Assembly (NCBI GenBank): GCA_965279125.1
Contig: CBDIHL010000038.1
Coordinates: 124,302-188,301 of the forward strand
Direction of reading: 5' to 3'
DNA from: Dinoroseobacter sp.
Lineage (GTDB): Bacteria; Pseudomonadota; Alphaproteobacteria; Rhodobacterales; Rhodobacteraceae
Length of the DNA: 64,000 nucleotides
In this document: piece after piece, positions 1-22,919 of the stretch
How positions within the stretch are numbered: the stretch's first letter is position 1
Layout of the letters: every line of letters starts with the position of its first letter
Translations under genes and position numbers: made by a program
The notes under the pieces: model-generated
Seen by the model: only the letters and a program-made list of their open reading frames with translations
The model's database searches: none
Told to the model about the DNA's origin: nothing

Positions 1-435
1 GGCATTGCCGGTGGCGTTGGCGGCAATGCCGTTGGTCAGCAAGCCGCAGCGGCCAATCGCGAACTGGTTAAGCGCGATGAAGTGCTTGCGAACCTGCGGC
101 GCGTTTCAGGAGGTTTGACCGATGTCGAGCGTCAATTGCGGGCTGTCATTCGGTCGCAGAATTCGGAAATCCGGTCGTTGCGTCGCCAAGCCTCGGCAGG
201 TCAAATATCTGATTCTGCTGTGAGATCGCGGATCCGGTCGATCAACTCCAACCGCTCGGCAGTGTCGGCAACTCTTGGTCGGACCGAAGCAAACATGGCC
301 AACACAACGAACGAGATCAACCAAGCGCGTCAACAGGGCCAGCGAAACCTTGGCGCTCTGAGAAATGCATCGTCAAGCACCAAGAACCGGATCGCGCGTG
401 CGCGCAGCTCCATACGGACGGTTGCTGCCGACTAA
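1..435 (+). CDS. hypothetical Ser/Arg/Asn-rich coiled-coil protein; 5' end lies outside the window
   Basis: Frame 1 is open from nt 1 (GIAGGVGGNAVGQQAAAANRELVKRDEV...) through the listed ORF 82..435. Heptad-like R/S/N-rich sequence. The C-terminus (RSSIRTVAAD) resembles that of the next gene (RSSVRALAAS). Confidence 0.5.
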   Translation, partial: GIAGGVGGNAVGQQAAAANRELVKRDEVLANLRRVSGGLTDVERQLRAVIRSQNSEIRSLRRQASAGQISDSAVRSRIRSINSNRSAVSATLGRTEANMANTTNEINQARQQGQRNLGALRNASSSTKNRIARARSSIRTVAAD

Positions 436-524
436 GACGTGGCAATGCCTCAACCCAATCGCAGATTTTCAAAAGTCTGCGGTTGGCAAGACTCTCTTTA
501 ATCATAGGCAAGGATGGTGTCCCG

Positions 525-989
525 ATGGCTCCTAAACGTATTATTTTTCCGGTGGTCGCAACAGGATTTCTACTCTCAGGTTGTGTAACGGGCGATACGA
601 ACCCCGCAACGGCGGGATTGTTTGATAACATAAATAACTTGCGCAGCGGCGAATATGACCGACAAATTCGCGCCAAAGACGCCGAAGCCGCAGCGATTAC
701 GGCAGCCAATAATCGGAGCCAATCTAACGTCGCCGCCTTGCGCAGTGAGAGAGCCTCGAATGCCGCCTTGATTTCATCGCTGCGCGCAGAAATTGCTGGC
801 GTCCGCCAAGAAATCTCGCGGGTGCGTGCGCGGGTTAGGTCTGACCCAAGTAAGGTATCGCGTCTGAGCCAGTTTGAACGGCAACTCGGTGGCGTGGAAG
901 CGGATGTGAACCGTGGCAACGTCTCCCAAGCGACAAGTCGTGAGCTGAGCACAATTCGCTCGTCTGTGCGTGCTTTGGCCGCAAGCTAG
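525..989 (+). CDS. putative lipoprotein, coiled-coil
   Basis: Internal Met of ORF 483..989 gives MAPKRIIFPVVATGFLLSGC, a signal peptide plus lipobox (LLSG|C). The rest is Ala/Arg/Ser-rich and helical. Confidence 0.6.
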   Translation: MAPKRIIFPVVATGFLLSGCVTGDTNPATAGLFDNINNLRSGEYDRQIRAKDAEAAAITAANNRSQSNVAALRSERASNAALISSLRAEIAGVRQEISRVRARVRSDPSKVSRLSQFERQLGGVEADVNRGNVSQATSRELSTIRSSVRALAAS

Positions 990-1019
990 CGGGCAGATGA
1001 TGCGCGCCCATTCAGATTT

Positions 1020-2669
1020 TTGAGATATCGGAGCCTATCTGTGGAATACGCAAGAAAGTGCCTGCTTGGCATAACCGTAATTGCTGCTGCGTCCATTGCA
1101 TCTGCGGTTGGTGCCTTTGCGCAGGAACGTGTGACAACTGGCGAGCAGACCCGATATCCGGCCGAAGGGCTTGCCATTATTGATTGCGACCCGTCACCAC
1201 CTGCGCCCGAAGACAGTTGCGTCGTTCGGATGCCTCCGAAGAATATACGTCAGGGTGGCATTACGTTTTCCAATGCCGCCTCTGAGGGCGCGGGCTTCGA
1301 CTATTTTACAGGCGGAGATAACGGCTTTCCAAGCGAGCTCGTCGCCTCCGCAACGGCTATCGTTCTTGATATCACCTCCGGTCCGCGCGGTTTGCGGCAA
1401 GCGCGTTGGGAGACTGAGCGCGACTATGTCATAGAGTTTATCGAAGCACTGCCAGATGATGGCCTGGTCGCGGTCTATTTCCTAGATGATGAGTTGGACT
1501 TGCGTCTTGGCTTTACCAGCCAGAAGCGGCGCGCTGTCGACCTGATTTCGGGGCTAGATCAGCTTGAGGGCCGCAACACTGTTCTGGGAACGAACCTTGT
1601 GGACGTGATCGAAAGCGTTGGTCGACGTGACGATATCTTGCTGAAGAACGTCGTGCTGATTAGCGATGGTGAAGATGAAGCGCCTATCTTGTCCGGCACT
1701 GAAATCGCTGATGTGGCCATTCGCGAAGGCGTCACCTTGTCAACAATGGCAACGATTTGGCGGCGCGCTGGCGGCACCAGTTCAAACTCGGAAACACGCA
1801 GTACCGCGACCGCAACTTTGCGGGAAATGACGCGCAGGACATTGGGCACGCATGAAGTCATAGAGACATTCGACAGCACAGCCGGTGCCGAAGCCGCGAC
1901 GCGGTTTGCGAAAGATTTTGCCACTTCCATCGGTGAGTCTGGTCTGATTTTGCCGGATGGCGATCCCGTTTCTGCAGACATTAATCTGACTTATGGCACT
2001 CCGGTGATCGGGCGCCCCGGCGAGTTTGACACACAAGTTGCAACCGTATCGTTCGTTGCGTCTACGGCGAATACTGAAGCTACGCCTGAACCTACTGTCA
2101 CCGAAGCAGAGCCGGCTGAGGTAACGACTGGATTTGCAGGGTTTCCTTGGGGCTTTGAGGAGACAACTGTCTATGCAATCGCAGCTGCAATCGCGGCACT
2201 TTTGTTGTTCTTGCTTCTGTTTCTCATCCTTGGACGCCGCAATCGCGACGAGGCTGACGATAACGGCGTAGAGGATGGTGGTTTTGGTGATGGTCCGGGT
2301 TCAGACGAAACAAAAGACAAAACAGAAAGGATTGATGAAGATCCACCCGTATCGCCCCCTCCACCAGCGCGTGAACCTTGGGCCTACTTTGTCAGGCAAG
2401 ATACTGGTGACCGTTTGCCGATCTATGGGCGCAGGGCCAAAATCGGTCGAAGCTCAGAAAACGAGGTCGCCTTCCGAGATGACGACAACACTGTCTCGAG
2501 GTTTCACGCTGAACTGGATGTCACTGGGAAGAACCAGATGATGTTGTCGGACACCAACAGTGCAAACAAGACCTTCGTGAACGGCAAAGAAGTGAAATCT
2601 GCGACGCAGATCAAATCCGGAGACATCGTTGCCTTCGGAGACCGAGAAACGAAGTTCATCATTCGTTAA
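1020..2669 (+). CDS. bitopic membrane protein: signal peptide, periplasmic vWA domain, TM helix, cytoplasmic FHA domain
   Basis: N-terminal signal (LLGITVIAAASIASAVGAFA|QE). vWA-like core (AIVLDITSG ... VAVYFLDD ... VVLISDGEDE). TM AIAAAIAALLLFLLLFLILG. C-terminal FHA signature (KIGRSSENEVAFRDDDNTVSRFHAEL...NSANKTFVNG). Start is TTG 1020 or GTG 1041. Confidence 0.8.
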   Translation: MRYRSLSVEYARKCLLGITVIAAASIASAVGAFAQERVTTGEQTRYPAEGLAIIDCDPSPPAPEDSCVVRMPPKNIRQGGITFSNAASEGAGFDYFTGGDNGFPSELVASATAIVLDITSGPRGLRQARWETERDYVIEFIEALPDDGLVAVYFLDDELDLRLGFTSQKRRAVDLISGLDQLEGRNTVLGTNLVDVIESVGRRDDILLKNVVLISDGEDEAPILSGTEIADVAIREGVTLSTMATIWRRAGGTSSNSETRSTATATLREMTRRTLGTHEVIETFDSTAGAEAATRFAKDFATSIGESGLILPDGDPVSADINLTYGTPVIGRPGEFDTQVATVSFVASTANTEATPEPTVTEAEPAEVTTGFAGFPWGFEETTVYAIAAAIAALLLFLLLFLILGRRNRDEADDNGVEDGGFGDGPGSDETKDKTERIDEDPPVSPPPPAREPWAYFVRQDTGDRLPIYGRRAKIGRSSENEVAFRDDDNTVSRFHAELDVTGKNQMMLSDTNSANKTFVNGKEVKSATQIKSGDIVAFGDRETKFIIR

Positions 2670-2710
2670 GTGAACCAGCGCAGTCGACTGCGCAAATAAG
2701 GAACAAGGCC

Positions 2711-3355
2711 ATGGCTGGTAAGAAAGATGATCTTCACGACGAAACATCGCGTTGGATTTTCGACGACGATGAAACGGGGACCGACCGCGCCACGGAAGAT
2801 GCTGGCTTCACCAGCCATCTTGATGGTCCGCCGGATATGACACCACCTCCATTTGGGGGAGGCAGTTCCGCGTCCACGGTCGTCATTGGCGGCGGTTCAG
2901 ACGGCACCGTGATCGGAGGCCTCACAGGTCTGGGCGAGGACGAAGACAACGTTGCGGACGATCCTGTTGTAGGCTGGCTTGTCGTCGTCAAAGGCAAGGG
3001 CATTGGCCATTCGATCCCCCTTGGACCGGGTATTAACAGCGTCGGTCGGGATAGCTCAGAACGCGCACCCATCCCGTTTGGCGACACGCGAATTTCAAGC
3101 AAAGATCATGTGAAGATTGTCTATGACAATCAGGCGCGCGGCTTTTTGATTGCACCGGGATCCGGCAAAAACCCAACGCGTTTGGAACTTGCACCGACCG
3201 AGAAAGGTCCTCGTAGCACAATTGTCATGGTGGCGCAGCCTTTGGAAAGCTACGCGGTGATCCAACTGAGCGAGAAAACATCGGTGCGTTTTGTGGCCTT
3301 CTGCAACGAGGGTTTTGATTGGAGTGACGTGATCGACGAAGACGAGGCTAGCTAA
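2711..3355 (+). CDS. soluble FHA-domain protein with acidic/Gly-Pro-rich N-terminal region
   Basis: FHA signature GPGINSVGRDSSERAPIPFGDTRISSKDHVKIVYDNQARGFLIAPGSGKNPTRL. No TM segment seen. Confidence 0.8.
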   Translation: MAGKKDDLHDETSRWIFDDDETGTDRATEDAGFTSHLDGPPDMTPPPFGGGSSASTVVIGGGSDGTVIGGLTGLGEDEDNVADDPVVGWLVVVKGKGIGHSIPLGPGINSVGRDSSERAPIPFGDTRISSKDHVKIVYDNQARGFLIAPGSGKNPTRLELAPTEKGPRSTIVMVAQPLESYAVIQLSEKTSVRFVAFCNEGFDWSDVIDEDEAS

Positions 3356-3357
3356 GC

Positions 3358-4533
3358 ATGATCCCGGTCCATGGTCGGCAAAGCATCGGTCAACGAAAAT
3401 CTCAACAAGATGCGTATGAAATTGTTTTCGACAACGACAAGGATCCTGCGACCAACACGCTCATGCTGTTATCTGACGGCATGGGCGGACATGTTGGCGG
3501 TGAGATCGCCAGCAATATTGCGATAAAGTCGTTTGCAAAGCACTTCACCGAAATCTCCTCAGCAACACGTCCATCGGTGCGCCTGCGTGAGGCGCTCGAT
3601 TACGCGAATGCATCTATTGCGGGTCGGATAAAGGCAGAGCCAGACCTGTCTGGGATGGGATGTACCCTGATTGCCGGCCTGAAACTTGGCGATAAGTTTC
3701 ATTGGGTCAGCGTCGGGGACAGCATCGTCTATTTGTATCGAGGCGGAAAACTCAAGCGGATCAACGCGGATCATTCCGTCTATGGTGAACTGATCGAACT
3801 TGTCCGCCAAGGCAAATTAGACAAGGCCGAAGCGGATCAAAATCCTCGCAGACATGCTTTGCGGTCCGCATTGATCGGTGGCAAAATCTCACTCGTAGAT
3901 ACAAACGCAGTCGAACTTCAGCACAACGATCTTGTTCTCCTGGCGAGTGATGGGCTGGACACGCTTCAAGAGGCTGAAATCAAGCGATTGTTAGCGGCTG
4001 ATAAGTTAACGGATGTTCGCACGCTCTCGGCGCTTCTGCTGACTGCTGTTGAAGAGAAGCGTAAGCCACGCCAGGACAACACGACGGTTATCGTATATCG
4101 CCATCAGACTGGCAGTGCGAGCACGCTCGCAGGCTCTTCCGTTTGGAGCGGCGGCGCGTCCGATGATCCGCGTCCCGGCAAACGCGGCATGTTAATTGCG
4201 GGCATTGTTGGAAGTGCGCTCGCTCTGGCCGTGCTCATCTACCTGGTTGCCTTTGGCGGGCGTCAAGAGCCAGTCGTTATCGCCCCTCCGCCTGCTGTCG
4301 AGCCTACGGAAGAAAACAGTTTTTCCGGTGAGATTGGTGGATCTGACCGCGGCGATACGCAAACCGAAGGGATTGTGGGGGACGAAGAGTCCGCCGAGGA
4401 GGACATAGCACCTTCCGAGGACGCTGAAAGTGACGTTCAAGTTGCACCCGACACCGAGCAAGACCCCCCAGCAGATGCTGAGGGCGTGACGGCCGAAGAC
4501 GAAGAGACTTCTGCGGACGGTCAAGGAGAGTAG
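3358..4533 (+). CDS. PP2C-family Ser/Thr protein phosphatase, membrane-anchored, acidic C-terminal tail
   Basis: PPM motifs (SQQDAY, LLSDGMGGHVGGEIAS, LLASDGLD, DNTTVIV). TM MLIAGIVGSALALAVLIYLVAFGG. D/E-rich tail. Starts 2 nt after the preceding stop. Confidence 0.85.
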   Translation: MIPVHGRQSIGQRKSQQDAYEIVFDNDKDPATNTLMLLSDGMGGHVGGEIASNIAIKSFAKHFTEISSATRPSVRLREALDYANASIAGRIKAEPDLSGMGCTLIAGLKLGDKFHWVSVGDSIVYLYRGGKLKRINADHSVYGELIELVRQGKLDKAEADQNPRRHALRSALIGGKISLVDTNAVELQHNDLVLLASDGLDTLQEAEIKRLLAADKLTDVRTLSALLLTAVEEKRKPRQDNTTVIVYRHQTGSASTLAGSSVWSGGASDDPRPGKRGMLIAGIVGSALALAVLIYLVAFGGRQEPVVIAPPPAVEPTEENSFSGEIGGSDRGDTQTEGIVGDEESAEEDIAPSEDAESDVQVAPDTEQDPPADAEGVTAEDEETSADGQGE

Positions 4534-4536
4534 ACC

Positions 4537-5685
4537 ATGTCGATGGAACAGTCTCCTCCGCTGCCGATCGGAGAAGTCGTCGCTCAGGGGCGCTTTCGGA
4601 TTGCTTCCGTTCTTGGACGCGGCGCATTTGGAATAACTTATGAAGCGGTGCGCACAAGAGATGGAAAGCGTTTCGCGATAAAGGAATACCTGCCGTTCAA
4701 GACCTGCAGGCGGATGAACAAAGGTATTGTGCGTCCGTTGCCCGGCAAAGAAGCTGAGTTCGAGAAAGGCAAAGAAGTCTTTTATGAAGAAGCGCACATC
4801 TTAAGAAGCCTTCCGCGTCAGAGGGGGCTGGTAAAGGTTATTGGGGCCTCCGAGCGCAAAGGAACGTATTTGTGCATGATGGAGTTCATCGAAGGCAAGA
4901 CGATCAAAGAGCTGGTGCCAATGCTTGTTCAGCAGCATTCGCATGTCCCCGAAGAGATTATTCGCCAGTTCGTTTACCTGCTATCTGCCGCATTGCATTC
5001 CGTTCATACGAAAGCGCGACTGACCCACCGCGATATCAAGCCCGACAACATCATGATCCGCAAGTCGAACCGCGAACCGGTTCTCATTGATTTTGGTGCT
5101 GCGCGCCCCTTGGATCGGCATGTTGATATCCCTGACATGTATACGCCCCCCTATGCGGCGATTGAGCAGTTCAGCGTCCGCAAGACAGGCTACAATCAGG
5201 ATGCCAAAATAGGTCCTTGGACGGATCTTTTTGGCCTGTCCCTCGTTCTTTATGAAATGATGAGCCAAAGCTTGCCATTGCCGTCACATCAGCGGTGGGC
5301 TGCTTTGAAAGAAACCGGGAAAGATCCTTATGTTCCGATCCGAGAGAACCTCGCGCGCAATCGAATAAAGGCGACCTATTCTGACGACTTGCTTGATCTC
5401 ATTGATCGAGGGTGTCGATTGCTTCCGCATCAAAGGCCTCGCACTGCGAAAGAGTTTGCAAAAGCCTTGGGGCGCCCGCGCGAGACAGCCGAAGCCGGTG
5501 CACAGCACCAAAAGGAAGAAACGCGCATTATCGCAATTTGGACCGAAGGAGAGGCCGACGATAACCCGGTTGTCAGCCGTCTGCTTAGGATTTGGGAACG
5601 TGGCAAGCTTTTCTGGATCATTCTCATCCTCGCAGGTGCTGTGACCATCTTTTCCTACCTCTATGGTGCGGGGGTTTTTGAATGA
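4537..5685 (+). CDS. Hanks-type Ser/Thr protein kinase, C-terminal tail anchor, no extracytoplasmic domain
   Basis: GRGAFGITY Gly-loop, AIKEY Lys, HRDIKPDNIMI catalytic loop, DFGAAR. Single C-terminal TM LFWIILILAGAVTIFSYLYG, 5 residues from the end. Confidence 0.9.
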   Translation: MSMEQSPPLPIGEVVAQGRFRIASVLGRGAFGITYEAVRTRDGKRFAIKEYLPFKTCRRMNKGIVRPLPGKEAEFEKGKEVFYEEAHILRSLPRQRGLVKVIGASERKGTYLCMMEFIEGKTIKELVPMLVQQHSHVPEEIIRQFVYLLSAALHSVHTKARLTHRDIKPDNIMIRKSNREPVLIDFGAARPLDRHVDIPDMYTPPYAAIEQFSVRKTGYNQDAKIGPWTDLFGLSLVLYEMMSQSLPLPSHQRWAALKETGKDPYVPIRENLARNRIKATYSDDLLDLIDRGCRLLPHQRPRTAKEFAKALGRPRETAEAGAQHQKEETRIIAIWTEGEADDNPVVSRLLRIWERGKLFWIILILAGAVTIFSYLYGAGVFE

Positions 5686-6965
5686 TCAGGTCATTAGCGA
5701 TCTCCGTTGTGCTGTTTTTGATGTCGGTTATTCAGGTCTCGGGCCAAGATTTTGCTGAGCTGGGTCAGCGTGCTGAGAACGCTGTTGGTCGGGTGCTCAA
5801 TATCGTCGGAGACCGTGCGAGAGGATCCGGCACAGGTTTTGTGATCGGTGAGGCCGCGGAACGCGGCAGTTACTTCATGATTACCAACGAGCACGTCGTG
5901 GCGGATGCGTCTGCCTTGGTTGTTGGCTTTCGCAATGACGATGAGGTCGTCATTTTCCGGGCGCGCGTTCTTAGAGAATCCGTTGGATACGATCTTGCCT
6001 TGTTGCTGATCACCGCTCCATCCGATCCGTCGTTTCGGCCCGATAGTCTTAAGCTTGCAAACCGGGAGCTTGTGCGCGGCGAACCCTTGTTTGCGCTAGG
6101 CTTTCCGGGCGCATCACAAATTTTGGCGACTGGCCGAGATCAGGTTGGCGCGTACACACCGACCCTCACAACAGGCTCCATCAGCAAGGTATATGAAGGC
6201 ACATGGGGGCGGGGCCAGGCTCTCGAATTGGTTGAGCATTCGACAACGATCAACCCGGGCAATTCCGGCGGGCCGTTGATGGACGCCTGTGGGCATGTCG
6301 TTGGCGTGAACTCTGCGGGGCTGACTGAGCAGAACAATACGTTTTTGGCATCCTCACCCAATGCCGTTCGTGAGTTTCTGATCGGATCGAATGTCGCCTT
6401 TGATAACAGCAGTTCTTGCAACCCCGACAGCCTTTTAAGCTACCTATCGAACCGCAACGCGCTTTGGGTCGGATTGGCCTTCCTCGCCGTTGCAACCGTG
6501 ATGATGGTCGCGATTGATCGCGCAAATGGGGGCGGGGGAGCGCGCGCTGTGCGGCGCGTGTTGGTGATGCGGGTTCCGGCTCAAACCCCACGACGTGCCC
6601 CGAAAGCCGCGCCTAGAAAGACCCCCGAGCGGGCTGCCAAATCGACACGCGATAAGGCGGTTCTAAAGGTTGTAGCGCCGGGTCTTGGCATGACGGTTCC
6701 GCGCAAACTCACCAATCGAAATCTGGGCTCACAGGTCATCATCGGACGTTCATCAGAAGCCGATATTCAGATCGATAACTCACAGCTGAGCCGAAAGCAT
6801 GCGGCGCTCAGCCTGCAAGATCGCAAGCTTTTTATCGAAGACTTGGGCTCTTCAAACGGTGTGAGCGTGGATGGCGTTAAACTGGCCGCCAATGTTAAAC
6901 GCCAGATTAACACCAGCTCAAAGATAGAGCTGGGAGGGCAAGCGCTTGTCCTGTCACGGCCCTAG
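5682..6965 (+). CDS. bitopic membrane protein: signal peptide, periplasmic trypsin-like serine protease, TM helix, cytoplasmic FHA domain
   Basis: ATGA overlap with the kinase gene. Signal peptide (VVLFLMSVIQVSG). Catalytic-triad contexts TNEHVV, YDLALL, NPGNSGGPL. TM LWVGLAFLAVATVMMVAI. Basic Thr-Pro-rich linker. FHA signature IIGRSSEADIQIDNSQLSRKHAAL...GSSNGVSVDG. Confidence 0.8.
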   Translation: MIRSLAISVVLFLMSVIQVSGQDFAELGQRAENAVGRVLNIVGDRARGSGTGFVIGEAAERGSYFMITNEHVVADASALVVGFRNDDEVVIFRARVLRESVGYDLALLLITAPSDPSFRPDSLKLANRELVRGEPLFALGFPGASQILATGRDQVGAYTPTLTTGSISKVYEGTWGRGQALELVEHSTTINPGNSGGPLMDACGHVVGVNSAGLTEQNNTFLASSPNAVREFLIGSNVAFDNSSSCNPDSLLSYLSNRNALWVGLAFLAVATVMMVAIDRANGGGGARAVRRVLVMRVPAQTPRRAPKAAPRKTPERAAKSTRDKAVLKVVAPGLGMTVPRKLTNRNLGSQVIIGRSSEADIQIDNSQLSRKHAALSLQDRKLFIEDLGSSNGVSVDGVKLAANVKRQINTSSKIELGGQALVLSRP

Positions 6966-6974
6966 TGAATACGC

Positions 6975-7682
6975 ATGTCATACGCGTTAGAGATCAAAAA
7001 TGTCGGCGTTCACCTCAGTTCTACATTCGCGGTTGTGATTGAGGACTTTTCATTGAGCCGTGGCGAGACTGTTGTCTTAGATGCGCCAAGCGGAACCGGA
7101 AAAAGCACGGCCTTGGCATTGATTTCAGGCGCGATCGCGCATGATGAGTTCCCCAGTTGGCGTCATGTTATCGGTGGGAGACCGGTCACATCAGCGACCG
7201 CGCGGTCAGAATACGCGGCCTCCAAATCAATCGGGTTTGTGTTGCAAACAAGCAAGCTGGTTCCATTCTTATCGGTCCGCGAAAACATCGTCTTGCCAAG
7301 TCATGTGCAGGCCGAGCGATTTGAAACCTCTTGGTTTGAGTTTCTGGTTGGCAGCCTTGGAATTGCTGATTTGTTGGAACGCCATCCCAGCGAAATATCG
7401 ATTGGGCAGCGGCAGCGCGTCTCGATTGCACGCGCCATGCTGGGACAACCGACCGTTTTGCTGCTGGACGAGCCTGTTTCAGCTTTAGACCCCAACAACG
7501 TCACCAAAGTGGAGGAACTGATCCAATTGCTGGCCACCGAAGCGCAGTGCGGTGTGGTGTTGGCCAGTCACCAAGCCCACCGTGGAGTCTTCGACCAAGA
7601 ACCACGCGCGCACCATAGTGTCGTCGAACATGACGGCATCAGCTATAGCGTCTTTCGGCGCGATCCGGCTGGCCGCCAATGA
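6975..7682 (+). CDS. ABC transporter ATP-binding protein (LolD/MacB/TagT-like)
   Basis: Walker A APSGTGKST, degenerate signature ISIGQRQRVSIARA, Walker B LLLDEP, H-loop ASHQ. Confidence 0.85.
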   Translation: MSYALEIKNVGVHLSSTFAVVIEDFSLSRGETVVLDAPSGTGKSTALALISGAIAHDEFPSWRHVIGGRPVTSATARSEYAASKSIGFVLQTSKLVPFLSVRENIVLPSHVQAERFETSWFEFLVGSLGIADLLERHPSEISIGQRQRVSIARAMLGQPTVLLLDEPVSALDPNNVTKVEELIQLLATEAQCGVVLASHQAHRGVFDQEPRAHHSVVEHDGISYSVFRRDPAGRQ

Positions 7683-8866
7683 TGCAGGTCGCCGTCCAAT
7701 TGGCCGTCAAGGAATTGCGGCATGAATGGCGCGCGGGGCTCTGCCTCGTTGCGTCAATCGTCTCAATCCTCGCCCCACTTTTGGTTCTTCTGGCGCTCAA
7801 GAACGGAGTAATCGACGCTTTGGTCGAAGGACTTGTGGATGATCCAAGGAACCGCGAAATTCTATCGACACGCGCGTCCTCCCTAGATGCAGAGTTTTTT
7901 GCGAAATGGTCGCGAGATCCGCAAATCGACTTTATCAGCCCCCGGACGCGTGCCGTGAATACCCAAGTCAAAGCCGTTCAGAACAGCGCAAACCGCAAAG
8001 TCGTAGAGCCTGTTACGCTTTTGCCGTCTGGGCCAGGTGATCCGTTACTACCGAGCGGATCAACACAGCATGAAGGCGCGTATATTACGGAACGTTTGGC
8101 GCGCCAGATCGAATGGCAGGCCGGGGATGAAATTGTCCTGATCGCGGAGCGCACTATAAATGGCACCCTTGAGACCGCGCGCACGCGTCTGCCTGTTCAT
8201 GGAATTGTTCCAGAACGGTCTCTGCGCCAGCACGCGGTGTTTGTACCTTTGGACGTGTTGGTCGGCGTCGAGCGTTTTGTAGACGACCAATCGCTTGCGC
8301 CAGAGTTATGGATGACGGATGTCGAGATGCCCCAGGCATTTGCTAGCTTTCGTCTTTATGTGCGTGAGCTTGCCGACCTTGAAGAGGTCAATGAGCGATT
8401 GCGCGCCACCGGATTATCAACACGCCCCCTTGCACAAAATGCGGTGTCGCTGCTGGATTTCCGAACACGCTTGAACGGCCTGTATGCTGCAATTGCGGGT
8501 CTGGCCGTATTGGGATTTTGGGCCGCAATGGCTGCAAACCTAAGAGGTATGGTCGAGCGCCAACGCACGACGTTCAGCTTCCTCAACTTGATTGGCTATC
8601 AGCCGATCGTGCGTGCCAGTATGCCATTGATTCAATCGGTAACACTCGTTTTGCTTGGTATAGTCGCGTCCCTTGCAATCGTCTTACCGATGCTTGCGGT
8701 CGTGAATCTATTATTTCAGGATGAAGCTGACAATGTGGCTGTGTTGGGCTTGTGGGATATCGTGCTGACAATTGCTGTCGGCTTGTGTCTTGCATTGATA
8801 TCTTCAATTTGGGCGATCCGTGCTGCGGTTGCCGTTTCTGCGGACGAGGTACTTAGAAATGCTTAG
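7679..8866 (+). CDS. ABC transporter permease, FtsX/MacB type (LolC/E- or TagS-like)
   Basis: ATGA overlap with the ATPase gene. Topology is TM1, a periplasmic loop of about 220 aa, then 3 C-terminal TMs, as in the FtsX family. Confidence 0.75.
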   Translation: MMQVAVQLAVKELRHEWRAGLCLVASIVSILAPLLVLLALKNGVIDALVEGLVDDPRNREILSTRASSLDAEFFAKWSRDPQIDFISPRTRAVNTQVKAVQNSANRKVVEPVTLLPSGPGDPLLPSGSTQHEGAYITERLARQIEWQAGDEIVLIAERTINGTLETARTRLPVHGIVPERSLRQHAVFVPLDVLVGVERFVDDQSLAPELWMTDVEMPQAFASFRLYVRELADLEEVNERLRATGLSTRPLAQNAVSLLDFRTRLNGLYAAIAGLAVLGFWAAMAANLRGMVERQRTTFSFLNLIGYQPIVRASMPLIQSVTLVLLGIVASLAIVLPMLAVVNLLFQDEADNVAVLGLWDIVLTIAVGLCLALISSIWAIRAAVAVSADEVLRNA

Positions 8867-10475
8867 AAACGTGATGCAGATTTCGATTTGTTTTGGTTTG
8901 CTGTCGGTATTTGCCACACCTGCCATAGCCGAAATCGCCTGGAGGGACAGGCTGTACAACCCGGCGGCACTTGATGACGACGTCGTTCTACCAATGCCGT
9001 GCGACGGAGCGATGGTATTCCGCAAAGTCGAGACACCAAATAGGGATGGGGCCATCGGTGACGTTCCGTTTATCCTTGGCGAGGTCAATGAAGAGCAACC
9101 TTACCTAACCGGTCTGCGTCGCGCATTTGTGTCTGGACCGTTCTCATCAGCGGCGGACGGAACACAAAACCATTTCTACATGGCAAAATACGAGTTGGCA
9201 CAAATCCAGTTTGACGTCGTGATGCAACTGTTGAATGGGCAGGGATGCCCAGAAGGACGCGTGGGGCGTATTGACTTCCTACCCGTTGTCGATGTCAGCA
9301 AGTCAGAAATGGAGCGCTTTAGCGAGCTATATACGGTTTGGCTTCTTGAGAACGCGGCGGAGTCGTTGCCGCGATCAGGCAACACGACCGGATTTCTCCG
9401 CTTGCCGACAGAAGAAGAATGGGAGTTCGCCGCGCGCGGCGGCACGCGCTTGGAAGATGCCGCGTTTCGGGCCCCGCGTCCTCCGATCGAGCCTGGATCT
9501 GAGATCGCAGAATACATTGCCTATAATGGACCCGAAAGCGCGAATGGGGAAATACAATCCATAGGATTGCGCCGCGCCAACCCACTTGGCCTGCATGATA
9601 TGCTCGGCAATGTCGCTGAGATTGTGTCGACACCTTTCTCTATGGTGCGGCACGGGCGCCTGCATGGCCAAGCCGGGGGATACGTCAAACGCGGCGGTGA
9701 TGCACGCTCGCGTCTGGAACGGGTGACAAGTGCGACGCGGTTTGAAGTGCCTCCGTTCGATGAAATCTCGAAAAAGGTCTCGACGGATCGCTTTACGGGG
9801 GGGCGATTTGTAATTTCGGCGCAATCCATCACATCCCCCGAGCAGTTGGCCGCGATTGTTGCCAATCTAGAAGCATTGGCCCGGCCGGATGGTGCACTTG
9901 AGAATGCCGCATCAGAGGAAGAGGCAATGGCGCTTCTGGACGAAATCGCGGGCACGACCCCTTCCGCGCGCGAACGCCAGCAACTCGAAGTTGTCAAAAG
10001 CACAATTCTGGCGGGTCAAGCCGAACGGAACAGCCAGCGGGATCGGTCCATTCGCTTGGTCTTTGGTGCGACCACTTTGTTATGCGATCAAGCCATTCAG
10101 AGGTATTCAAATGCCTTGGCGATCGAGCCTTGGCTGGATGAATTTGCTGCAATGGAACAAACACCCGAAGTGCTTGAGGAAATCGAGTTTGCTCTGGACA
10201 GCATAAAATCACTTGAAGACCGTGCGCTTTCATCAAGTGCAGAATATGCTGATTTTCTGGAAGGAATGGCGGCTGATTACTCTCCGGCCTTGCTCGAGCG
10301 TCAGCTTCGTATCGTTATTGCAGATGTCGAGGATACGCAAACTCGACGCGGCCAGTGTTTTCTCGCGGCCGAGCGCCATCTTCTGGATCGCCTAAACCTT
10401 GGATACGCGAACATTCAGGCTATCGCGGAGGACTTTAAGTCCATTGCATTTGAACGCGCCCAAGCGCCGCAATGA
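8859..10475 (+). CDS. exported FGE-sulfatase (SUMF1/TagR-like) domain protein with helical C-terminal domain
   Basis: ATG 8859 overlaps the permease stop by 8 nt. Signal peptide MLRNVMQISICFGLLSVFATPAIA. FGE-family motifs RLPTEEEWEFAARGG and GLHDMLGNVAEIV. The listed ORF start 8820 (GTG) would lie inside the permease gene. Confidence 0.8.
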   Translation: MLRNVMQISICFGLLSVFATPAIAEIAWRDRLYNPAALDDDVVLPMPCDGAMVFRKVETPNRDGAIGDVPFILGEVNEEQPYLTGLRRAFVSGPFSSAADGTQNHFYMAKYELAQIQFDVVMQLLNGQGCPEGRVGRIDFLPVVDVSKSEMERFSELYTVWLLENAAESLPRSGNTTGFLRLPTEEEWEFAARGGTRLEDAAFRAPRPPIEPGSEIAEYIAYNGPESANGEIQSIGLRRANPLGLHDMLGNVAEIVSTPFSMVRHGRLHGQAGGYVKRGGDARSRLERVTSATRFEVPPFDEISKKVSTDRFTGGRFVISAQSITSPEQLAAIVANLEALARPDGALENAASEEEAMALLDEIAGTTPSARERQQLEVVKSTILAGQAERNSQRDRSIRLVFGATTLLCDQAIQRYSNALAIEPWLDEFAAMEQTPEVLEEIEFALDSIKSLEDRALSSSAEYADFLEGMAADYSPALLERQLRIVIADVEDTQTRRGQCFLAAERHLLDRLNLGYANIQAIAEDFKSIAFERAQAPQ

Positions 10476-10497
10476 CGCATATTCGGAGGATAACGGT

Positions 10498-10767
10498 ATG
10501 AGAGATACACTGAACAAATCCCTAGAGGGTCTCGTTTGGGTCGCAACCGGATTCTTGATTGTATTGTCTTGTTACCTAGGGGGCGTCTTCATCCGCGTCT
10601 CTGGTGAGTTAAACCTAGACATGATCTATGTCTTCGGTGGTCTGCTCTTCATCGTATTCGGCATAACAATGTCATTTGTGTTTGCAGGCCTGTGCTTTCA
10701 GATCATGGACATACGGAATTTTGCAAAGCACTCTGCGATTGGTTTGAAGAAAATTTCCCAGAAATAA
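10498..10767 (+). CDS. small hydrophobic membrane protein (89 aa), unknown function
   Basis: ATG 10498 is preceded by GGAGGA. Hydrophobic helices (VWVATGFLIVLSCYLGGVF; IYVFGGLLFIVFGITMSFVFAGLCF). The upstream part of ORF 10399 overlaps the FGE gene. Confidence 0.5.
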   Translation: MRDTLNKSLEGLVWVATGFLIVLSCYLGGVFIRVSGELNLDMIYVFGGLLFIVFGITMSFVFAGLCFQIMDIRNFAKHSAIGLKKISQK

Positions 10768-10804
10768 GCGCAGATGGGTTTGTGCACACAAGAAGGTAAG
10801 CGTG

Positions 10805-12214
10805 ATGACTGACGAACTCGACCTCGAACCTGGCACTGTCATTCAGGATACATACCGTGTGGATGAAATGCTGGGGCGCGGCGGCATGGGGGCTACGTTT
10901 CGGGGCGTGAACTTGGCGACGGGTCATGCGGTCGCGATCAAGATCATTATCCCGAGGCTTGCCGCAAACACGCGTGCGGTCGATTTGTTCAAACGAGAAA
11001 GCAGCATGTTGCGCACCGTACAGCATGACGCCGTCATCCGCTATGAGACGACATTGCAAGACCGAGACGGGCGTCTTTACTTGGTGATGGAATATGCTGA
11101 CGGTAAATCGCTCGCGGACTACATCAAAAAGGGCGCGCGCTTGCCAAGCGAAGGCGTCTTGAAGCTTGGTCTGCGACTTGCCGGCGGTCTGAGTGCAATT
11201 CACGGCTTGAACATCATTCACCGGGATGTGGCCCCCGATAATATCATCGCGCCAAAAGGGCAGATCGAGAAAGCGAAGTTCATCGACTTTGGTCTGGCCT
11301 CAGACACGGTCGGCACAGATCAGTCGATTATCGGCGATAGCTTTGCTGGCAAGATGAACTTCGCAGCGCCCGAACAGTTCGGCCTGTTTGGCAACAAGGT
11401 AACAAGCAAAACCGATTACTACGCTCTGGGTCTTGTTTTGATGAAAGTCGCAGGTCTTGCCATCCCCGGTGGCGGCAAAGGCATGGGCGCAGTCGAAGAT
11501 CGCCGGCAGGATGTCAAGATCGTGGGCTCGGATGCTTCCCCGGTCTTGGTGCGCACTTTGGAAATGCTGCTCAAAGCGGACCCTAATGATCGCCCCGATG
11601 ACGTTGTGCAGGTTTTCCGAGACGCACTCGTTGCACAAGAACGCGGCTCGGCGCCAGAAACGCCGACTGGCATGCCCGCAAAAGACACTTCCGACACTTC
11701 CAACGCTCAAGGCAGCCGTATCATGCTTGCCGGCGGGGGGGCTGTCGCCATCGTTGCGGTTGTGTCCGCCGCGGCGTTTTACATTCTTGGGCAAGGGGGC
11801 ACAGACCCGGTCCCGGTCGGTCCCGATAGCCTTGAACAGGCCGAAGCTGCACAGCAACTGCTTGCGGAAGATGACCCAATCGCACAGGCAAAGGCCACGA
11901 TCGAGAGCGGCGATAAAGGGCAGATTGGCGAGGTTTTGGGGGCAATGATCAAGCTCTTGGCCGACGAGAGCGCCGCGTCTGCTGTGCGCATTGAGGCCGC
12001 GCTGATCGTCGCGCGCATGTATGATCCCGAGACGTTTGATGCGCTGCGGTCTCCGTTTGACGAGCCAAATGCAACTGCGGCCCAACGGTATTACGAAGTG
12101 GCAGAACAACTTGGCTGGCAGGGCTTGCTTGAAACGCAAGACCGGGCAACCCGTTGGGCCGAACTGCGTGATAGCGTGTGGGACACAAAGACACTCGGAA
12201 AGGCGGAAACCTGA
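10805..12214 (+). CDS. Hanks-type Ser/Thr protein kinase with TM helix and a periplasmic helical domain of about 140 aa
   Basis: GRGGMGATF, VAIKII, HRDVAPDNII, DFGLAS, AAPEQ. TM IMLAGGGAVAIVAVVSAAAFYIL. The C-terminal region has a weak Sel1/TPR-like signature (AAQRYYEVAEQLGWQG). Confidence 0.9.
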   Translation: MTDELDLEPGTVIQDTYRVDEMLGRGGMGATFRGVNLATGHAVAIKIIIPRLAANTRAVDLFKRESSMLRTVQHDAVIRYETTLQDRDGRLYLVMEYADGKSLADYIKKGARLPSEGVLKLGLRLAGGLSAIHGLNIIHRDVAPDNIIAPKGQIEKAKFIDFGLASDTVGTDQSIIGDSFAGKMNFAAPEQFGLFGNKVTSKTDYYALGLVLMKVAGLAIPGGGKGMGAVEDRRQDVKIVGSDASPVLVRTLEMLLKADPNDRPDDVVQVFRDALVAQERGSAPETPTGMPAKDTSDTSNAQGSRIMLAGGGAVAIVAVVSAAAFYILGQGGTDPVPVGPDSLEQAEAAQQLLAEDDPIAQAKATIESGDKGQIGEVLGAMIKLLADESAASAVRIEAALIVARMYDPETFDALRSPFDEPNATAAQRYYEVAEQLGWQGLLETQDRATRWAELRDSVWDTKTLGKAET

Positions 12215-12215
12215 C

Positions 12216-14165
12216 ATGATGGGTCGAATGATCAGAGCACTTATCGCTGTAGCATTTGTAGTCAGCTTTCATACGGCGCCGCTTGCTGCGCAAGATGTCA
12301 GACCGCTGGTTATCGACGGGAAAGACACGCTGTTTCAAAGGGTTCTGTTGCGTAACAGAATACAAGCTCGCAGCGCACCGGATGGCGAGATCCTACGCAG
12401 CTTTGCGCCTCTGCAAGCGTTGTATGTCTATACGCGCCAACGCGACTGGCTCGAGGTTGCGCTTGGAACCGAGGGAGAGGACCGCGTTTGGATCCCTGAC
12501 GCCTCTGCGGTCGATTGGAACCAGAACATTGTTGCAACCTTGGAAGGCGGTGCCAATGTCGAGCGGCTGATGTTCTTTAGCGACGAGAACAGTGTCTACG
12601 ACATTATCGAAAGCGAAAACCCCGCCGCGGCAGCCGCACCATTTCTGGAAGCCGCATTAACGGCCGAGCAGGGGGGGGCTGCCTCGCAAGACGTTATTGC
12701 CTTGGGCCCGCAAGAAGCGATCGACCAGCGTAACAACCTTTATGTGATGCCCATTCTTGATGCGGAAAGGGCAATATTTGATGTTGGAGGCAGCGTAAAT
12801 GTCCTCAAAGTGGCCGTCGCCCGGTCTGACTTAGGCGGCCGGCTGCAACTGGATACCGAAAGTGCGACGACCGAGGCGGCCCGGCAAAATTTCAAAGCAG
12901 CTGTGGTGTTTGTCGTCGATACCACGATCTCGATGGAGCCTTACATCAACGCCACACGTGACGCGCTGGAAGAAGTCTATGCGCAAATTGCGCAGAAGAA
13001 TGAAACAGGCGTCGTCTCATTTGGCTTGATTGGATTTCGCGACAATGTCGATGCGGCACCGGGTTTGGAGTATGACGTCCAAACCTTTGTCAACCTTCAA
13101 GAAGGACGCGACGCCGATGCTTTTTTGGGCGGAATTTCTCGCATGACCGAAGCAAACGCGTCTTCGCGCAATTTTCGCGAAGATAGCTTTGCCGGGATCG
13201 AGTTCGCACTCACATCGCTGGATTGGTCCGATTTTGGGGCCAAGTATATCGTGCTGGTCACGGATGCGAGCCCGCGTGGCGCTGATGACGAACTCAGCGC
13301 AACCGGGCTTAGTCCGAGTGCCTTGAATTCCTTGGTCAAGGAACGGATCAAAGGCGTCATCGCGGCTCTGCACCTGCGCACGCCCAGAGGGGAGGCTGAC
13401 CATGCGCGGGCGGAAAACGCCTACACGGAGATGACACGGCAAACCAATGAAGCACCCCTCTACTTTCCTGTGGAAAATGGAGATGCCGAGATTTACCGAC
13501 AAACAGCGCGTGAGCTTGGGCGGTTCATTTCGGATCAGGTCATAAGCTTTCGCTCCGGGGACGCGCCTGAAGAGGCCGCTGATAGCTCCCTGTTTGCGGT
13601 GCAAGCATTGGCCTCTGCAGGCCGCACAATGCAATTGGCCTATCTCGGCAGCACCACAGGCACCGCGGCACCAGATGTCTTTGAAGCTTATGTCGTGGAC
13701 CGGGATTTTGATCGGCGCAGCCTCACGCCCCTGTCAATTCGAGTTTTGCTGAACAAGTCCGAGCTGAGCAACCTTGTCCAAGCTCTTGAAATCATTATCC
13801 AGAACATGGAAGAGAGCATCATCGCCCCGGACGAGTTCTTTTCGGGCGTGCTCGCCGCCGCCGCCGCGATGAGCCGCAATCCTGATACGCTCAACACGAG
13901 ATCTGATGCTACGCTTGCCGAGGCCGTGTCCATTTCCGAGTATCTCGATGGGCTGCCATATACCTCGGATGTGATGGGGTATACGCAAGAGGAATGGGTG
14001 CGCCTTACAATCCCTGAACAGGTCAACATCCAGAACGATCTCTATGCGAAGTTGCAGCTTTATCGCAGCTACAACCAGTCAACGGATCTGTGGGTCGATT
14101 ATCTTGGGGCCGGACCATCCTCGGAGAACTTGCTTTACCCGATGCCGGTCTCAAGCTTGCCTTAG
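12216..14165 (+). CDS. exported vWA-domain protein
   Basis: ATG sits 1 nt after the kinase stop. Signal peptide MMGRMIRALIAVAFVVSFHTAPLAA|Q. vWA core with MIDAS-like VVFVVDTTISME, GLIGFRDN, KYIVLVTDASPRG. The listed start 12021 would overlap the kinase by about 190 nt. Confidence 0.8.
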   Translation: MMGRMIRALIAVAFVVSFHTAPLAAQDVRPLVIDGKDTLFQRVLLRNRIQARSAPDGEILRSFAPLQALYVYTRQRDWLEVALGTEGEDRVWIPDASAVDWNQNIVATLEGGANVERLMFFSDENSVYDIIESENPAAAAAPFLEAALTAEQGGAASQDVIALGPQEAIDQRNNLYVMPILDAERAIFDVGGSVNVLKVAVARSDLGGRLQLDTESATTEAARQNFKAAVVFVVDTTISMEPYINATRDALEEVYAQIAQKNETGVVSFGLIGFRDNVDAAPGLEYDVQTFVNLQEGRDADAFLGGISRMTEANASSRNFREDSFAGIEFALTSLDWSDFGAKYIVLVTDASPRGADDELSATGLSPSALNSLVKERIKGVIAALHLRTPRGEADHARAENAYTEMTRQTNEAPLYFPVENGDAEIYRQTARELGRFISDQVISFRSGDAPEEAADSSLFAVQALASAGRTMQLAYLGSTTGTAAPDVFEAYVVDRDFDRRSLTPLSIRVLLNKSELSNLVQALEIIIQNMEESIIAPDEFFSGVLAAAAAMSRNPDTLNTRSDATLAEAVSISEYLDGLPYTSDVMGYTQEEWVRLTIPEQVNIQNDLYAKLQLYRSYNQSTDLWVDYLGAGPSSENLLYPMPVSSLP

Positions 14166-14192
14166 ACATTTGGGCCTGATGAGGCTGTCGAA

Positions 14193-14675
14193 CTAATCCC
14201 AGCCAAACGCTGGCAGTCTTACTTTGACCTCCTCGGGCACGGGCAACGCGGTAATGGGACGCGTATCCGTGCCGTGACCGGCCCAGATCCGGGTTTCTTC
14301 GCCGCGCGCGTAGATGGCCCCCTCGGGCCCGCGAAACTGGTGGCCGATCTGGAACGAGGTGCGGCCCCAATGAAGGATGCGGCTTTCAATCGTCAGAACC
14401 GTGCCTTGCTTGGCCGGGATCATGAACTCTGACCCGGTCTTGACCAGCGGATGACCCAACAGATCAAAGCGCGTGGCCAAAACTTCGGCGCTATAGCCCG
14501 CGCGCGCAAAGAGGCGCCACGTGGCTTGGTCGAACCAGCGAAAGTAGTTGGGATAAAAGACTATTGCCGCCGGATCGCAATCACCGAACTCTATGGTGAC
14601 GCTATGCACCGGGCTTGCGTAAATCTCGGGCAGGGCGGGCGGCGCGGTCATGCGCCCTCGGTCGGCAGTGTTCAT
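14193..14675 (-). CDS. hotdog-fold acyl-CoA thioesterase (4HBT/YbgC family)
   Basis: Motif context GDCDPAAIVFYPNYFRWFDQATWRLF is typical of 4HBT-type thioesterases. The gene lies 13 nt downstream of iorB on the same strand. Confidence 0.7.
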   Translation of the reverse strand: MNTADRGRMTAPPALPEIYASPVHSVTIEFGDCDPAAIVFYPNYFRWFDQATWRLFARAGYSAEVLATRFDLLGHPLVKTGSEFMIPAKQGTVLTIESRILHWGRTSFQIGHQFRGPEGAIYARGEETRIWAGHGTDTRPITALPVPEEVKVRLPAFGWD

Positions 14676-14688
14676 TCTTAACCCTCTT

Positions 14689-18404: not shown

Positions 18405-18491
18405 CTTGCAGTCCTCGATTGCAGGTCAAACACCGTCGCCGTGACGTGGACCATACCCCCAAAATCGGCAGGCGTGCCGACAAAATATAGT

Positions 18492-18516
18492 TTGACACCC
18501 AACTAAATTATGTCAA
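18492..18516. promoter_or_regulatory. inverted repeat TTGACA-N13-TGTCAA in the iorA/TRAP divergent region
   Basis: 6-bp arms only. TTGACA also equals a sigma-70 -35 consensus. Candidate MarR site, but the statistical support is weak. Confidence 0.25.
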
Positions 18517-18581
18517 CCATAAAGCAGTGCCACAGACATAGCTTCGTCGTGTGGCGGTATTTTCTGGGAGGAGGATCACTT

Positions 18582-19598: not shown

Positions 19599-19602
19599 GC
19601 CT

Positions 19603-20112: not shown

Positions 20113-20136
20113 GCTTTTTGACTTGGGACGTGCCTG

Positions 20137-21444: not shown

Positions 21445-21457
21445 GAGCCAGCGAGAC

Positions 21458-21958: not shown

Positions 21959-21970
21959 ATGAAAAGGCAA

Positions 21971-22000: not shown

Positions 22001-22030
22001 ATCCTTTGGAAGGGGACCTTCGGCGCGCGC

Positions 22031-22882: not shown

Positions 22883-22919
22883 TCCAACTCAGGTCGGGGT
22901 TTTGAAGATGCAGGCCGCG

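Follow-up and report, generated by a model that had tools for sequence, protein, structure and literature searches.

The window is the whole stretch of DNA that was analysed, 64,000 nucleotides from a Dinoroseobacter sp. (contig CBDIHL010000038.1), and it begins with twelve packed genes on the same strand. The seventh of these genes encodes an HtrA-like protease domain, a single transmembrane (TM) helix and an FHA domain, in that order, and we call its product the protease-TM-FHA protein. A first-pass annotation, made from the letters alone, had described it as a periplasmic protease physically tied to a phosphothreonine (pThr) reader inside the cell. The features of the gene are as follows, with the amino acid residues in parentheses.

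5682..6965, + strand: protease-TM-FHA gene, 427 residues
5682..5744 (residues 1-21), + strand: signal peptide, cleavage predicted between VSG and QD, hydropathy of 2.09 over residues 1-19
5784..6419 (residues 35-246), + strand: HtrA-like S1 protease domain, from Pfam, PDB sequence matches, AlphaFold2 and Foldseek
5892-5894 (His71), 5991-5993 (Asp104) and 6264-6266 (Ser195), + strand: catalytic triad, from alignment
6288-6290 (C203) and 6417-6419 (C246), + strand: conserved Cys pair, from the family alignment
6459..6515 (residues 260-278), + strand: single TM helix, Kyte-Doolittle hydropathy of 2.44, within an AlphaFold2 helix at residues 248-282
6516..6728 (residues 279-349), + strand: basic, disordered cytoplasmic linker with Thr and Pro, from charge counts and the model confidence score pLDDT
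6729..6962 (residues 350-427), + strand: FHA domain, from Pfam, with G355-R356, S370-x-x-H373 and N392-G393

Both domains were recognized by Pfam. Trypsin_2 lies at residues 50-209 with 88.5 bits against a cut-off of 27.6. FHA (PF00498) lies at residues 352-418 over its full profile (1-67) and scored 56.6 bits against a gathering cut-off of 20.7, well clear of the profile-threshold failure that the first-pass annotation had named as evidence against it. The triad contexts that it had quoted, TNEHVV, YDLALL and GNSGGPL, are present at residues 67-72, 103-108 and 193-199. In the PDB sequence search, the protease domain matched Deg1, DegQ, AlgW and DegS, and its triad contexts align with those of Deg1. 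The closest solved relative of the FHA domain was the FHA domain of ArnA (E = 1e-11). The pThr-binding motifs, G355-R356, S370-R-K-H373 and N392-G393, are all in place, and binding of the protein to pThr is predicted from them.

Modelling and a Foldseek search, both proposed with the first-pass annotation, returned a confident protease of HtrA-type fold, a helix, a disordered stretch and an FHA domain. The AlphaFold2 model of the full protein had a mean pLDDT of 81.5, with about 90 for the protease part. Residues 286-338 of the linker were disordered (pLDDT < 50), and residues 345-425 were all beta strands arranged as a beta-sandwich with pLDDT > 90, which is the FHA fold. Foldseek matched the protease model, a chymotrypsin double-barrel, to DegS-dPDZ, HtrA1, Deg1, DegQ, MucD and MarP/Rv3671c with E values of about 1e-13 to 1e-15 and target-normalised TM-scores of about 0.8.

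The Kyte-Doolittle profile shows only two hydrophobic segments. Residues 1-19 are signal-like and end in IQVSG before QD, in line with the signal peptide that had been claimed, and residues 260-278 form the one helix that had been placed ahead of the FHA signature. The 70 residues C-terminal to this helix hold 18 K/R and 2 D/E. Because of the signal peptide, the single TM helix and this strong positive-inside bias, the protease was placed outside and the FHA domain inside, and the product is predicted to be a bitopic inner-membrane protein with an extracytoplasmic protease and a cytoplasmic FHA domain. The word periplasm is apt because the host, an alphaproteobacterium of the Rhodobacterales, is diderm. 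Its AlaRS shares 79% identity with those of Meridianimarinicoccus and Roseicyclus. C203 and C246 likely form a disulfide, judging from their co-conservation and location, and this would be consistent with an oxidising compartment. The Cys pair, the single helix and the charge bias all agree with a reader inside and a protease outside. An arrangement with both domains on the same side, which had been named as the outcome to watch for, was not seen, since hydropathy, charge and the Cys pair put them on opposite sides.

The same architecture is widespread. About half of the 120 best database matches carry Trypsin_2 and FHA together. A search with a family profile against 1.84 billion representatives gave 3,819 proteins at E <= 1e-30. 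These include 150 or more clusters at 50% identity, each listed with E <= 4e-90 and aligned over its full length in nearly every case, and this recurrence of one end-to-end plan puts the architecture far beyond chance. Its members are named only generically in the databases, for example as trypsin-like peptidase domain-containing protein, and come from Litoreibacter, Hyphomicrobium, Rhodospirillales, Tabrizicola and Azospirillum (WP_014189772.1 in A. lipoferum 4B). A literature search for the fusion found no paper describing the architecture. The first-pass annotation likewise knew of no characterisation of the combination, but the combination is not rare, since it belongs to a large, generically annotated family. 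We also scanned GTDB genomes with the pattern [NS]PGNSGGPL. This pattern is generic to HtrA proteases: 79 of the 80 loci were HtrA genes of the ordinary kind, and L009 (Tabrizicola) was the only useful one. Fusions in the reverse order, FHA-TM-protease, were found as well (P0058, P0065 and P0068), so the pairing across the membrane arose or was selected more than once.

Conservation was counted in 149 diverse representatives of the family and in a separate alignment of 31 members. The triad was not lost on alignment, as had been thought possible. H71, D104 and S195 show no variation among the 31 aligned members, and His, Asp and Ser are kept in 145, 147 and 147 of the 149 representatives. Of the same representatives, 148 retain the two cysteines on the protease side, and exactly one TM helix separates the conserved Cys from the FHA domain in 148. 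Basic residues outnumber acidic ones just past the helix in 144, and an N-terminal hydrophobic segment at Kyte-Doolittle >= 1.3 occurs in 123. On the FHA side, the pThr-binding Arg is found in 140 and the Ser in 148, with ranges across the motif residues of 140-149 for GR, 142-148 for SxxH and 117-142 for NG. Since the triad, the pThr-binding residues, the Cys pair, the single helix and the charge bias are all kept, selection appears to act on both activities, one on each side of the membrane. Judged by these counts, the protease and FHA active sites are both under purifying selection.

The linkers of the family are disordered, basic and Ser/Thr-rich, with a median of 67 residues and a range of about 20-193. 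Their length varies and no position is conserved, which argues for a tether. The Thr-Pro-rich basic linker that the first-pass annotation had pointed out is real, with the string AQTPRRAPKAAPRKTPERAAKST at residues 300-322, but it is peculiar to the window protein and is not a family trait.

The whole set of twelve genes is syntenic in two metagenome-assembled genomes (MAGs), L001 and L002, and in L009, the complete genome of Tabrizicola sp. M-4, a cultured strain, with identities of 32-56%. The other eleven genes of the window operon are listed below. Tag names denote likeness in type to the Pseudomonas proteins discussed further on, and L004 is a further MAG.

1..435, + strand: 3' part of a glycine-zipper lipoprotein gene, TagQ-like in type; frame 1 is 42% identical to residues 106-236 of a 236-residue L001 protein
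483..989, + strand: candidate coiled-coil lipoprotein, 168 residues, lipobox FLLSG/C, from hydropathy and same-position orthologues in L001, L002 and L009
1020..2669, + strand: signal peptide, vWA, TM helix (residues 386-404) and FHA domain (residues 474-540); FHA 57.8 bits, weak VWA_2 match, TM segments
2711..3355, + strand: soluble 214-residue protein (p214), acidic and Thr-rich at the N-terminus and FHA-like but divergent at the C-terminus, from similarity to an L004 protein
3358..4533, + strand: PP2C Ser/Thr phosphatase with one TM helix (residues 279-297); PP2C_2 43.9 bits, motifs intact
4537..5685, + strand: Hanks-type Ser/Thr kinase 1 with a C-terminal anchor helix (residues 358-376); Pkinase 109.5 bits
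6975..7682, + strand: ABC ATPase of TagT/LolD-like type; ABC_tran 84.3 bits, best NCBIfam models DevA and LolD, below cut-off
7679..8866, + strand: FtsX/LolC-E-type permease, TagS-like in type, with 4 TM helices and a large extracytoplasmic loop (residues 41-267), from the TM map
8859..10475, + strand: secreted FGE-sulfatase/SUMF1-fold protein, TagR-like in type; FGE-sulfatase 73.1 bits, signal peptide
10802..12214, + strand: Ser/Thr kinase 2 with a TM helix (residues 307-325) and an extracytoplasmic helical-repeat domain; Pkinase 126.7 bits
12216..14165, + strand: secreted vWA protein, 649 residues; weak VWA matches, signal-like N-terminus

The window opens inside the lipoprotein gene and, therefore, the operon reaches past the 5' end of the window. 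The 236-residue counterpart in L001 has a lipobox N-terminus and weak Gly-zipper and Rick_17kDa_Anti matches. As the first-pass annotation had noted, the start codon of the protease-TM-FHA gene overlaps the stop of the kinase gene, with the ATG at 5682 sharing four nucleotides (ATGA) with the end of 4537..5685. Every signalling protein of the operon is membrane-anchored. The catalytic motifs of the PP2C and of kinase 1 are kept, the latter with GRGAFG, FAIK, HRDIKPDN and DFG. The PP2C scored 155 bits against the Stp1/IreP model, under its cut-off, and its TM helix is followed by an extremely acidic, low-complexity tail of about 95 residues that is predicted to be extracytoplasmic. Kinase 2 has the catalytic loop HRDVAPDN (HRD[V/I]APDN across the window, L001, L002 and L009) where HRDxKxxN is usual, so that in all four an alanine stands in for the catalytic-loop lysine, and keeps VAIK and DFG; it may be an atypical or non-catalytic kinase.

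The first-pass annotation did not mention a second protein with a periplasmic domain, a TM helix and an FHA domain, nor the downstream cassette that resembles TagQRST/PpkA. The plan of an outside domain, a TM helix and an FHA domain is used twice in the window operon, by the protease and by the vWA protein at 1020..2669, and it recurs in L004 and Azospirillum. The Azospirillum counterpart of the vWA protein has clear VWA and FHA matches. p214 had no Pfam match of its own. It is 40% identical over 141 residues to the L004 protein at 7880-8506 (FHA 37.7 bits), and the GR, SxxH and N motifs are visible. It also resembles switches of the GarA/OdhI type, whose N-terminus, once phosphorylated, binds to the FHA domain of the same protein. 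The permease scored 25.2 bits with FtsX, just under the gathering cut-off of 25.5, and its homologues in plasmid cassettes are annotated as FtsX-like permease. The secreted vWA protein is 52-54% identical to the product of the final gene in the L001, L002 and L009 operons. Two open reading frames (ORFs) as listed, 8820..10475 and the one from 12021, overlap the preceding genes by 47 and 194 nucleotides. Their real starts are probably near 8859 (Met14, FGE-like) and 12216 (Met66, vWA), according to the orthologue alignment and the position of the signal peptide.

We tentatively favor a mechanism in which pThr marks would draw in or cluster the FHA tails, with the periplasmic protease positioned or activated as a result, within an envelope-spanning phospho-signalling operon. 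As proposed sensors in the periplasm and outer membrane, the two lipoproteins, the FGE-fold protein, the mechanotransducer-type ABC/FtsX complex and the vWA proteins would set the activity of the membrane-anchored Hanks kinases, which the membrane PP2C would oppose. The resulting pThr marks could be carried by the juxtamembrane regions of the kinases, by the linkers within the FHA proteins or by p214, which is small and Thr-rich. The FHA tail of the protease would bind such marks, and this phospho-dependent binding would gather the protease at the active signalling complex, localising it and/or causing it to oligomerise and become active in the periplasm, with the sister vWA-TM-FHA protein gathered alongside. 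Rigid transmembrane allostery is implausible because the linker is disordered and varies about ten-fold in length, which leaves only recruitment or clustering. Kinase-dependent clustering or activation of the protease, as the first-pass annotation had suggested, is plausible because of the precedent of Rv1747 (PMC8339232). A more general inside-out route, in which cytoplasmic Ser/Thr phosphorylation is read by an FHA tail and becomes local activation of a periplasmic protease by clustering through a floppy tether, we regard as doubtful.

The neighborhoods of the gene in other genomes bear on this mechanism. Apart from the loci that share the full operon, the following contexts were found.

L004, MAG: vWA-FHA, FHA, FHA, PP2C and PP2C genes, then the protease-FHA gene
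L008, metagenome: FHA, PP2C and PP2C genes, then five tandem protease-FHA paralogues (3848-11572)
L094, Azospirillum lipoferum 4B, replicon p4: vWA-FHA, FHA, PP2C and PP2C genes, the protease-FHA gene, an FHA-kinase-DUF805 gene and a second kinase gene
L091, metagenome: vWA, FHA, MotA/ExbB, FHA, PP2C and Sel1-kinase genes adjoining the protease-FHA gene
L089, MAG: one small FHA gene near the protease-FHA gene
L006, metagenome, reverse-order type (P0068, 10001-11641): an FHA gene and a gene for a PD40-repeat Ser/Thr kinase
L007 (Hyphomicrobium), L092 and L090, MAGs: no nearby kinase, PP2C or extra FHA gene

L005 duplicates L004, which leaves 11 distinct contexts. Eight of the 11 join the protease-FHA gene to FHA, PP2C, kinase and/or vWA genes, and four of them are the full operon. 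The module of vWA, Ser/Thr kinase, FHA and PP2C genes, which spans 1020-5685 in the window, accompanies the protease-FHA gene also in L001, L002, L004, L009, L091 and L094. A neighborhood of kinase, phosphatase and FHA genes suggests that kinase signalling controls envelope proteolysis.

In L008 and L090, the paralogue arrays (five genes, and two genes at 6511-9476) are found immediately upstream of a gene for a PAS hybrid histidine kinase, with recA and alaS farther downstream. In the window, a similar hybrid kinase gene and then alaS occupy 57315-63720; the recA position holds an unannotated ORF (59795-60919), and no protease genes are there. Elsewhere in the window lie genes for ordinary metabolism, chemotaxis, sugar uptake, IMPDH, the hybrid histidine kinase and AlaRS, together with a polysaccharide cluster. 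The polysaccharide cluster at 22000-36200 encodes a Wzz/GNVR tyrosine-kinase-type co-polymerase, GT4 glycosyltransferases, a flippase and a GINT1-like transferase. Its ORFs at 21959-23029, 22920-23960, 25424-27187 and 27078-28547 (346-587 residues) had no Pfam match.

The G+C content of the operon is 0.54-0.56 (window 1-14000), compared with 0.61-0.63 in the adjoining DNA and 0.58-0.63 over the next 20 kb (14000-34000). The operon has other neighbors in L001/L002 than in the window, and in Azospirillum an integrase and transposases lie on its flanks. Taken together, such features suggest horizontal mobility. They could also fit a conflict or defence effector, that is, a mobile stress or anti-invader system in which a kinase releases a protease directed against the cell itself or an invader. 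The paralogue arrays would suit such a system, and trypsin, FGS and vWA domains recur in described conflict systems (PMC7159879). Against this, PADLOC returned generic kinase and trypsin matches only, the operon has no MoxR, STAND or GTPase core, and its parts are built for the envelope rather than for conflict centred on nucleic acids or NTPs. We consider this the least probable of the readings.

The genes downstream of the protease invite comparison with the threonine phosphorylation pathway of the T6SS (type VI secretion system). In Pseudomonas, the lipoprotein TagQ and TagR act on TagTS, which acts on PpkA to give phosphorylated Fha1, and PppA reverses this (T6SS literature; PMC13584744, PMC7817224). 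TagR, TagS and TagT belong to COG1262 (FGE-like), COG4591 (FtsX/LolE-like) and COG1136 (ABC ATPase), respectively (PMC13584744). The pathway senses envelope damage, and its actual signal is still open (PMC7817224). TagQ has been described as similar to the glycine-zipper 17-kDa antigen of Rickettsia (PMC3608642), and this is the type of the first operon gene of the window. The likeness to TagQRST-PpkA-PppA-Fha1 of the P. aeruginosa H1-T6SS is at the level of domain families only, and it covers a lipoprotein, an FGE-fold protein, an ABC ATPase with an FtsX permease, a Hanks kinase, vWA, PP2C and FHA. There are also differences. The kinases and vWA domains of the window are separate proteins, whereas the Pseudomonas membrane kinase is associated with a periplasmic vWA domain. 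The window has two kinases, one with an altered catalytic loop, and its FHA readers are membrane proteins with a periplasmic protease or vWA domain instead of a cytoplasmic T6SS scaffold. No T6SS genes were found among the annotated ORFs of the window or within 10 kb in L001, L002 and L009, and the annotated window genes included no other secretion machine. No operon protein matched the T6SS-specific NCBIfam models at E <= 0.001. The absence of T6SS linkage within the window ruled out the operon as a T6SS threonine phosphorylation pathway.

Similar cassettes occur apart from T6SS. tagQRST and ppkA lie beside srfABC in genomes that have no T6SS (PMC3608642), and a cassette of a Lol-like ABC transporter, vWA and SUMF1 flanks srfABC (bioRxiv 10.64898/2026.09.18.752743). 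We found the vWA/ABC/FtsX/FGE block adjoining srfABC on plasmids of Leclercia (L093), Lelliottia and Enterobacter and on a plasmid of Cereibacter sphaeroides. The FGE-like homologues in these cassettes are 32-38% identical to the window protein, and the FGE-like gene, to which alone the count applies, is on 114 Klebsiella plasmid records. On the C. sphaeroides plasmid p.A (CP031752.1, 15508-31650), the cassette beside srfABC includes a protease of the same lineage with neither a TM helix nor an FHA domain. Its TNFHVV, DFALL and GNSGGPLVDMCG motifs and its second Cys align with the window protease. This cassette accompanies SrfABC rather than Hanks kinase, PP2C and FHA genes. An FHA-less protease beside the cassette means that the outside role of the protease is tied to the vWA/ABC/FtsX/FGE set, and the TM-FHA tail would be the element that plugs it into kinase signalling.

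The Cereibacter protease also bears on the main rival, which uses the same physics in reverse. In this outside-in reading, the protease is a co-receptor and, therefore, an input, as TagR is for PpkA. Binding or cleavage of a periplasmic substrate, proposed to be damaged envelope proteins or a processed vWA, FGE or lipoprotein partner, would oligomerise the protease, which is the effect of substrates on HtrA proteases, and cluster kinases docked on the FHA tails, leading to trans-autophosphorylation. A protease without FHA beside the cassette points to a role confined to the periplasm, with the FHA domain added later. The strict conservation of the triad, which implies that catalysis matters, and the HtrA-type fold are also in its favor, and there are known cases of FHA domains that bind to kinases and modulate their activity (KI-FHA, bioRxiv 10.64898/2026.01.23.701218). 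In addition, the tail-anchored kinase 1 is nearly devoid of an extracytoplasmic part, so it needs a partner for sensing outside. However, the operon already has sensor-type parts in its lipoproteins, FGE-like protein, ABC/FtsX complex and the periplasmic domain of kinase 2. The FHA domain requires existing pThr, which puts it downstream of at least basal kinase activity, and the tandem arrays of 2-5 paralogues look like diversified outputs. We judge the co-receptor reading to be rather unlikely.

Another possible explanation is that the protease resets the signal. Once recruited by pThr, it would degrade the periplasmic parts of its own complex, for which the vWA domains, the FGE-like protein, the kinase 2 ectodomain and the acidic PP2C tail are proposed as targets, and so end or ratchet the signal with no external substrate. 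The protease gene is tightly packed between kinase 1 and the ABC gene, with frames that overlap or nearly abut, every partner has an extracytoplasmic segment, and the protease is tied to the cassette even without an FHA domain. Orphan family members that lack the cassette would have no such substrate, though, and this feedback is a special case of the mechanism we favor, not an exclusive alternative. As an explanation in its own right, it seems decidedly unlikely. The feedback and conflict readings are both less likely than the co-receptor.

Returning to recruitment of the protease by its FHA tail, several points weigh against it. The topology is a prediction from hydropathy, charge bias and the Cys pair. 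The protein had no Pfam match to a PDZ domain, through which canonical HtrA proteases are regulated. A conserved linker Thr, as a candidate phospho-site, was sought in the 31- and 149-member sets and none could be aligned; the Thr-Pro linker of the window protein as an intramolecular ligand of its FHA domain, another suggestion of the first-pass annotation, is left standing as a candidate idea that lacks a conserved Thr in the family. Kinase 2 has no catalytic-loop Lys and, therefore, part of the pathway may be non-catalytic. Three contexts (L007, L092 and L090) have no partner genes nearby, so the partners may lie elsewhere or may not be obligatory. Finally, sequence alone does not fix the direction of information flow. 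The architecture, topology signals, conservation of both active sites and gene linkage are observations, whereas the favored mechanism is inferred as regards the direction of signalling, the ligand and the substrate of the protease-FHA protein.

Bacterial signalling through Hanks kinases and FHA domains is known mainly for cytoplasmic outputs, such as metabolism, division and the assembly of T6SS or type III secretion systems. For periplasmic HtrA-type proteases, the known regulation comes from outside, through PDZ domains and unfolded substrates. FHA domains are known in fusions with many outputs, and the individual domains found here are ordinary. The protease-TM-FHA family physically couples kinase/FHA signalling and envelope proteolysis across the membrane, and the two appear functionally linked because both active sites are conserved in more than a hundred diverse lineages. 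Envelope signalling of the Hanks-kinase/FHA type with an extracytoplasmic protease as its output or co-receptor would be unprecedented. If the inside-out route is true, regulated extracytoplasmic proteolysis becomes a direct output of Hanks-kinase signalling, the sister proteins carry a vWA adhesion or interaction domain outside, and the TagQRST-type damage sensor gains a T6SS-independent effector arm at the site of damage. The TagQRST/PpkA-type cassette is a portable module with at least three partners, namely T6SS, SrfABC and the protease/vWA-FHA set. The simpler cassette without T6SS could help to learn what the Pseudomonas cassette senses. The function can be tested directly, because strains that have been cultured and sequenced carry members of the family, namely Tabrizicola sp. 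M-4 and A. lipoferum 4B.

Among known proteases, HtrA/DegS (MEROPS S1C) and MarP (Rv3671c) share with the window protease the chymotrypsin fold, the TNxH, DLA and GNSGGP triad contexts and an extracytoplasmic site, and DegS and MarP are also membrane-anchored. Unlike in HtrA/DegS, the anchor of the window protease is a single helix C-terminal to the protease that runs into a cytoplasmic FHA domain. MarP has an N-terminal polytopic anchor and a C-terminal protease, and the Cys pair, which is specific to the new family, sets the window protease apart from all three. No operon protein reached an NCBIfam equivalog cut-off. For the protease, Do/HtrA (TIGR02037) gave 64.4 bits against a cut-off of 416, DegS gave 35.5 against 423 and MarP (NF033740) gave 47.3 against 250. 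These scores and the missing PDZ domain ruled out membership in the HtrA, DegS or MarP families. A likeness to FhaB/FipA was also set aside as sub-threshold (54.7 against 125 bits, NCBIfam), and the main functional paper on FipA carries a retraction mark.

The vWA-centred conflict systems have a MoxR AAA+, STAND or GTPase core with VMAP or iSTAND, together with the recurrent domains named above (Kaur et al. 2020, PMC7159879). The missing core ruled out a ternary system of this kind, and the generic nature of the PADLOC matches ruled out a known defence system.

The closest precedent for the proposed clustering is Rv1747 of M. tuberculosis. Phosphorylation of its disordered linker by PknF drives FHA-mediated clustering of this membrane transporter, which is thought to control its envelope-directed activity (PMC8339232). 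Both Rv1747 and the window protein are membrane proteins with cytoplasmic FHA, a disordered linker that contains Thr and an adjoining Hanks kinase gene. Rv1747 carries its two FHA domains on the N-terminal side of an ABC exporter, whereas the window protein has one FHA domain C-terminal to a periplasmic protease, and linker phosphorylation is known for Rv1747 only.

In Sulfolobus, an FHA protein binds a phosphorylated vWA protein (PMC6509490; bioRxiv 10.64898/2026.01.23.701218). The ArnA-ArnB module of Sulfolobus and DRA0331-0334 of Deinococcus co-encode the same four families as the window operon, namely vWA, Ser-Thr kinase, FHA and PP2C. These modules are cytoplasmic, have no protease and regulate archaellum expression or the DNA-damage response. 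In the window operon, by contrast, the vWA domain and the protease are predicted to lie outside the membrane, each with an FHA domain of its own.

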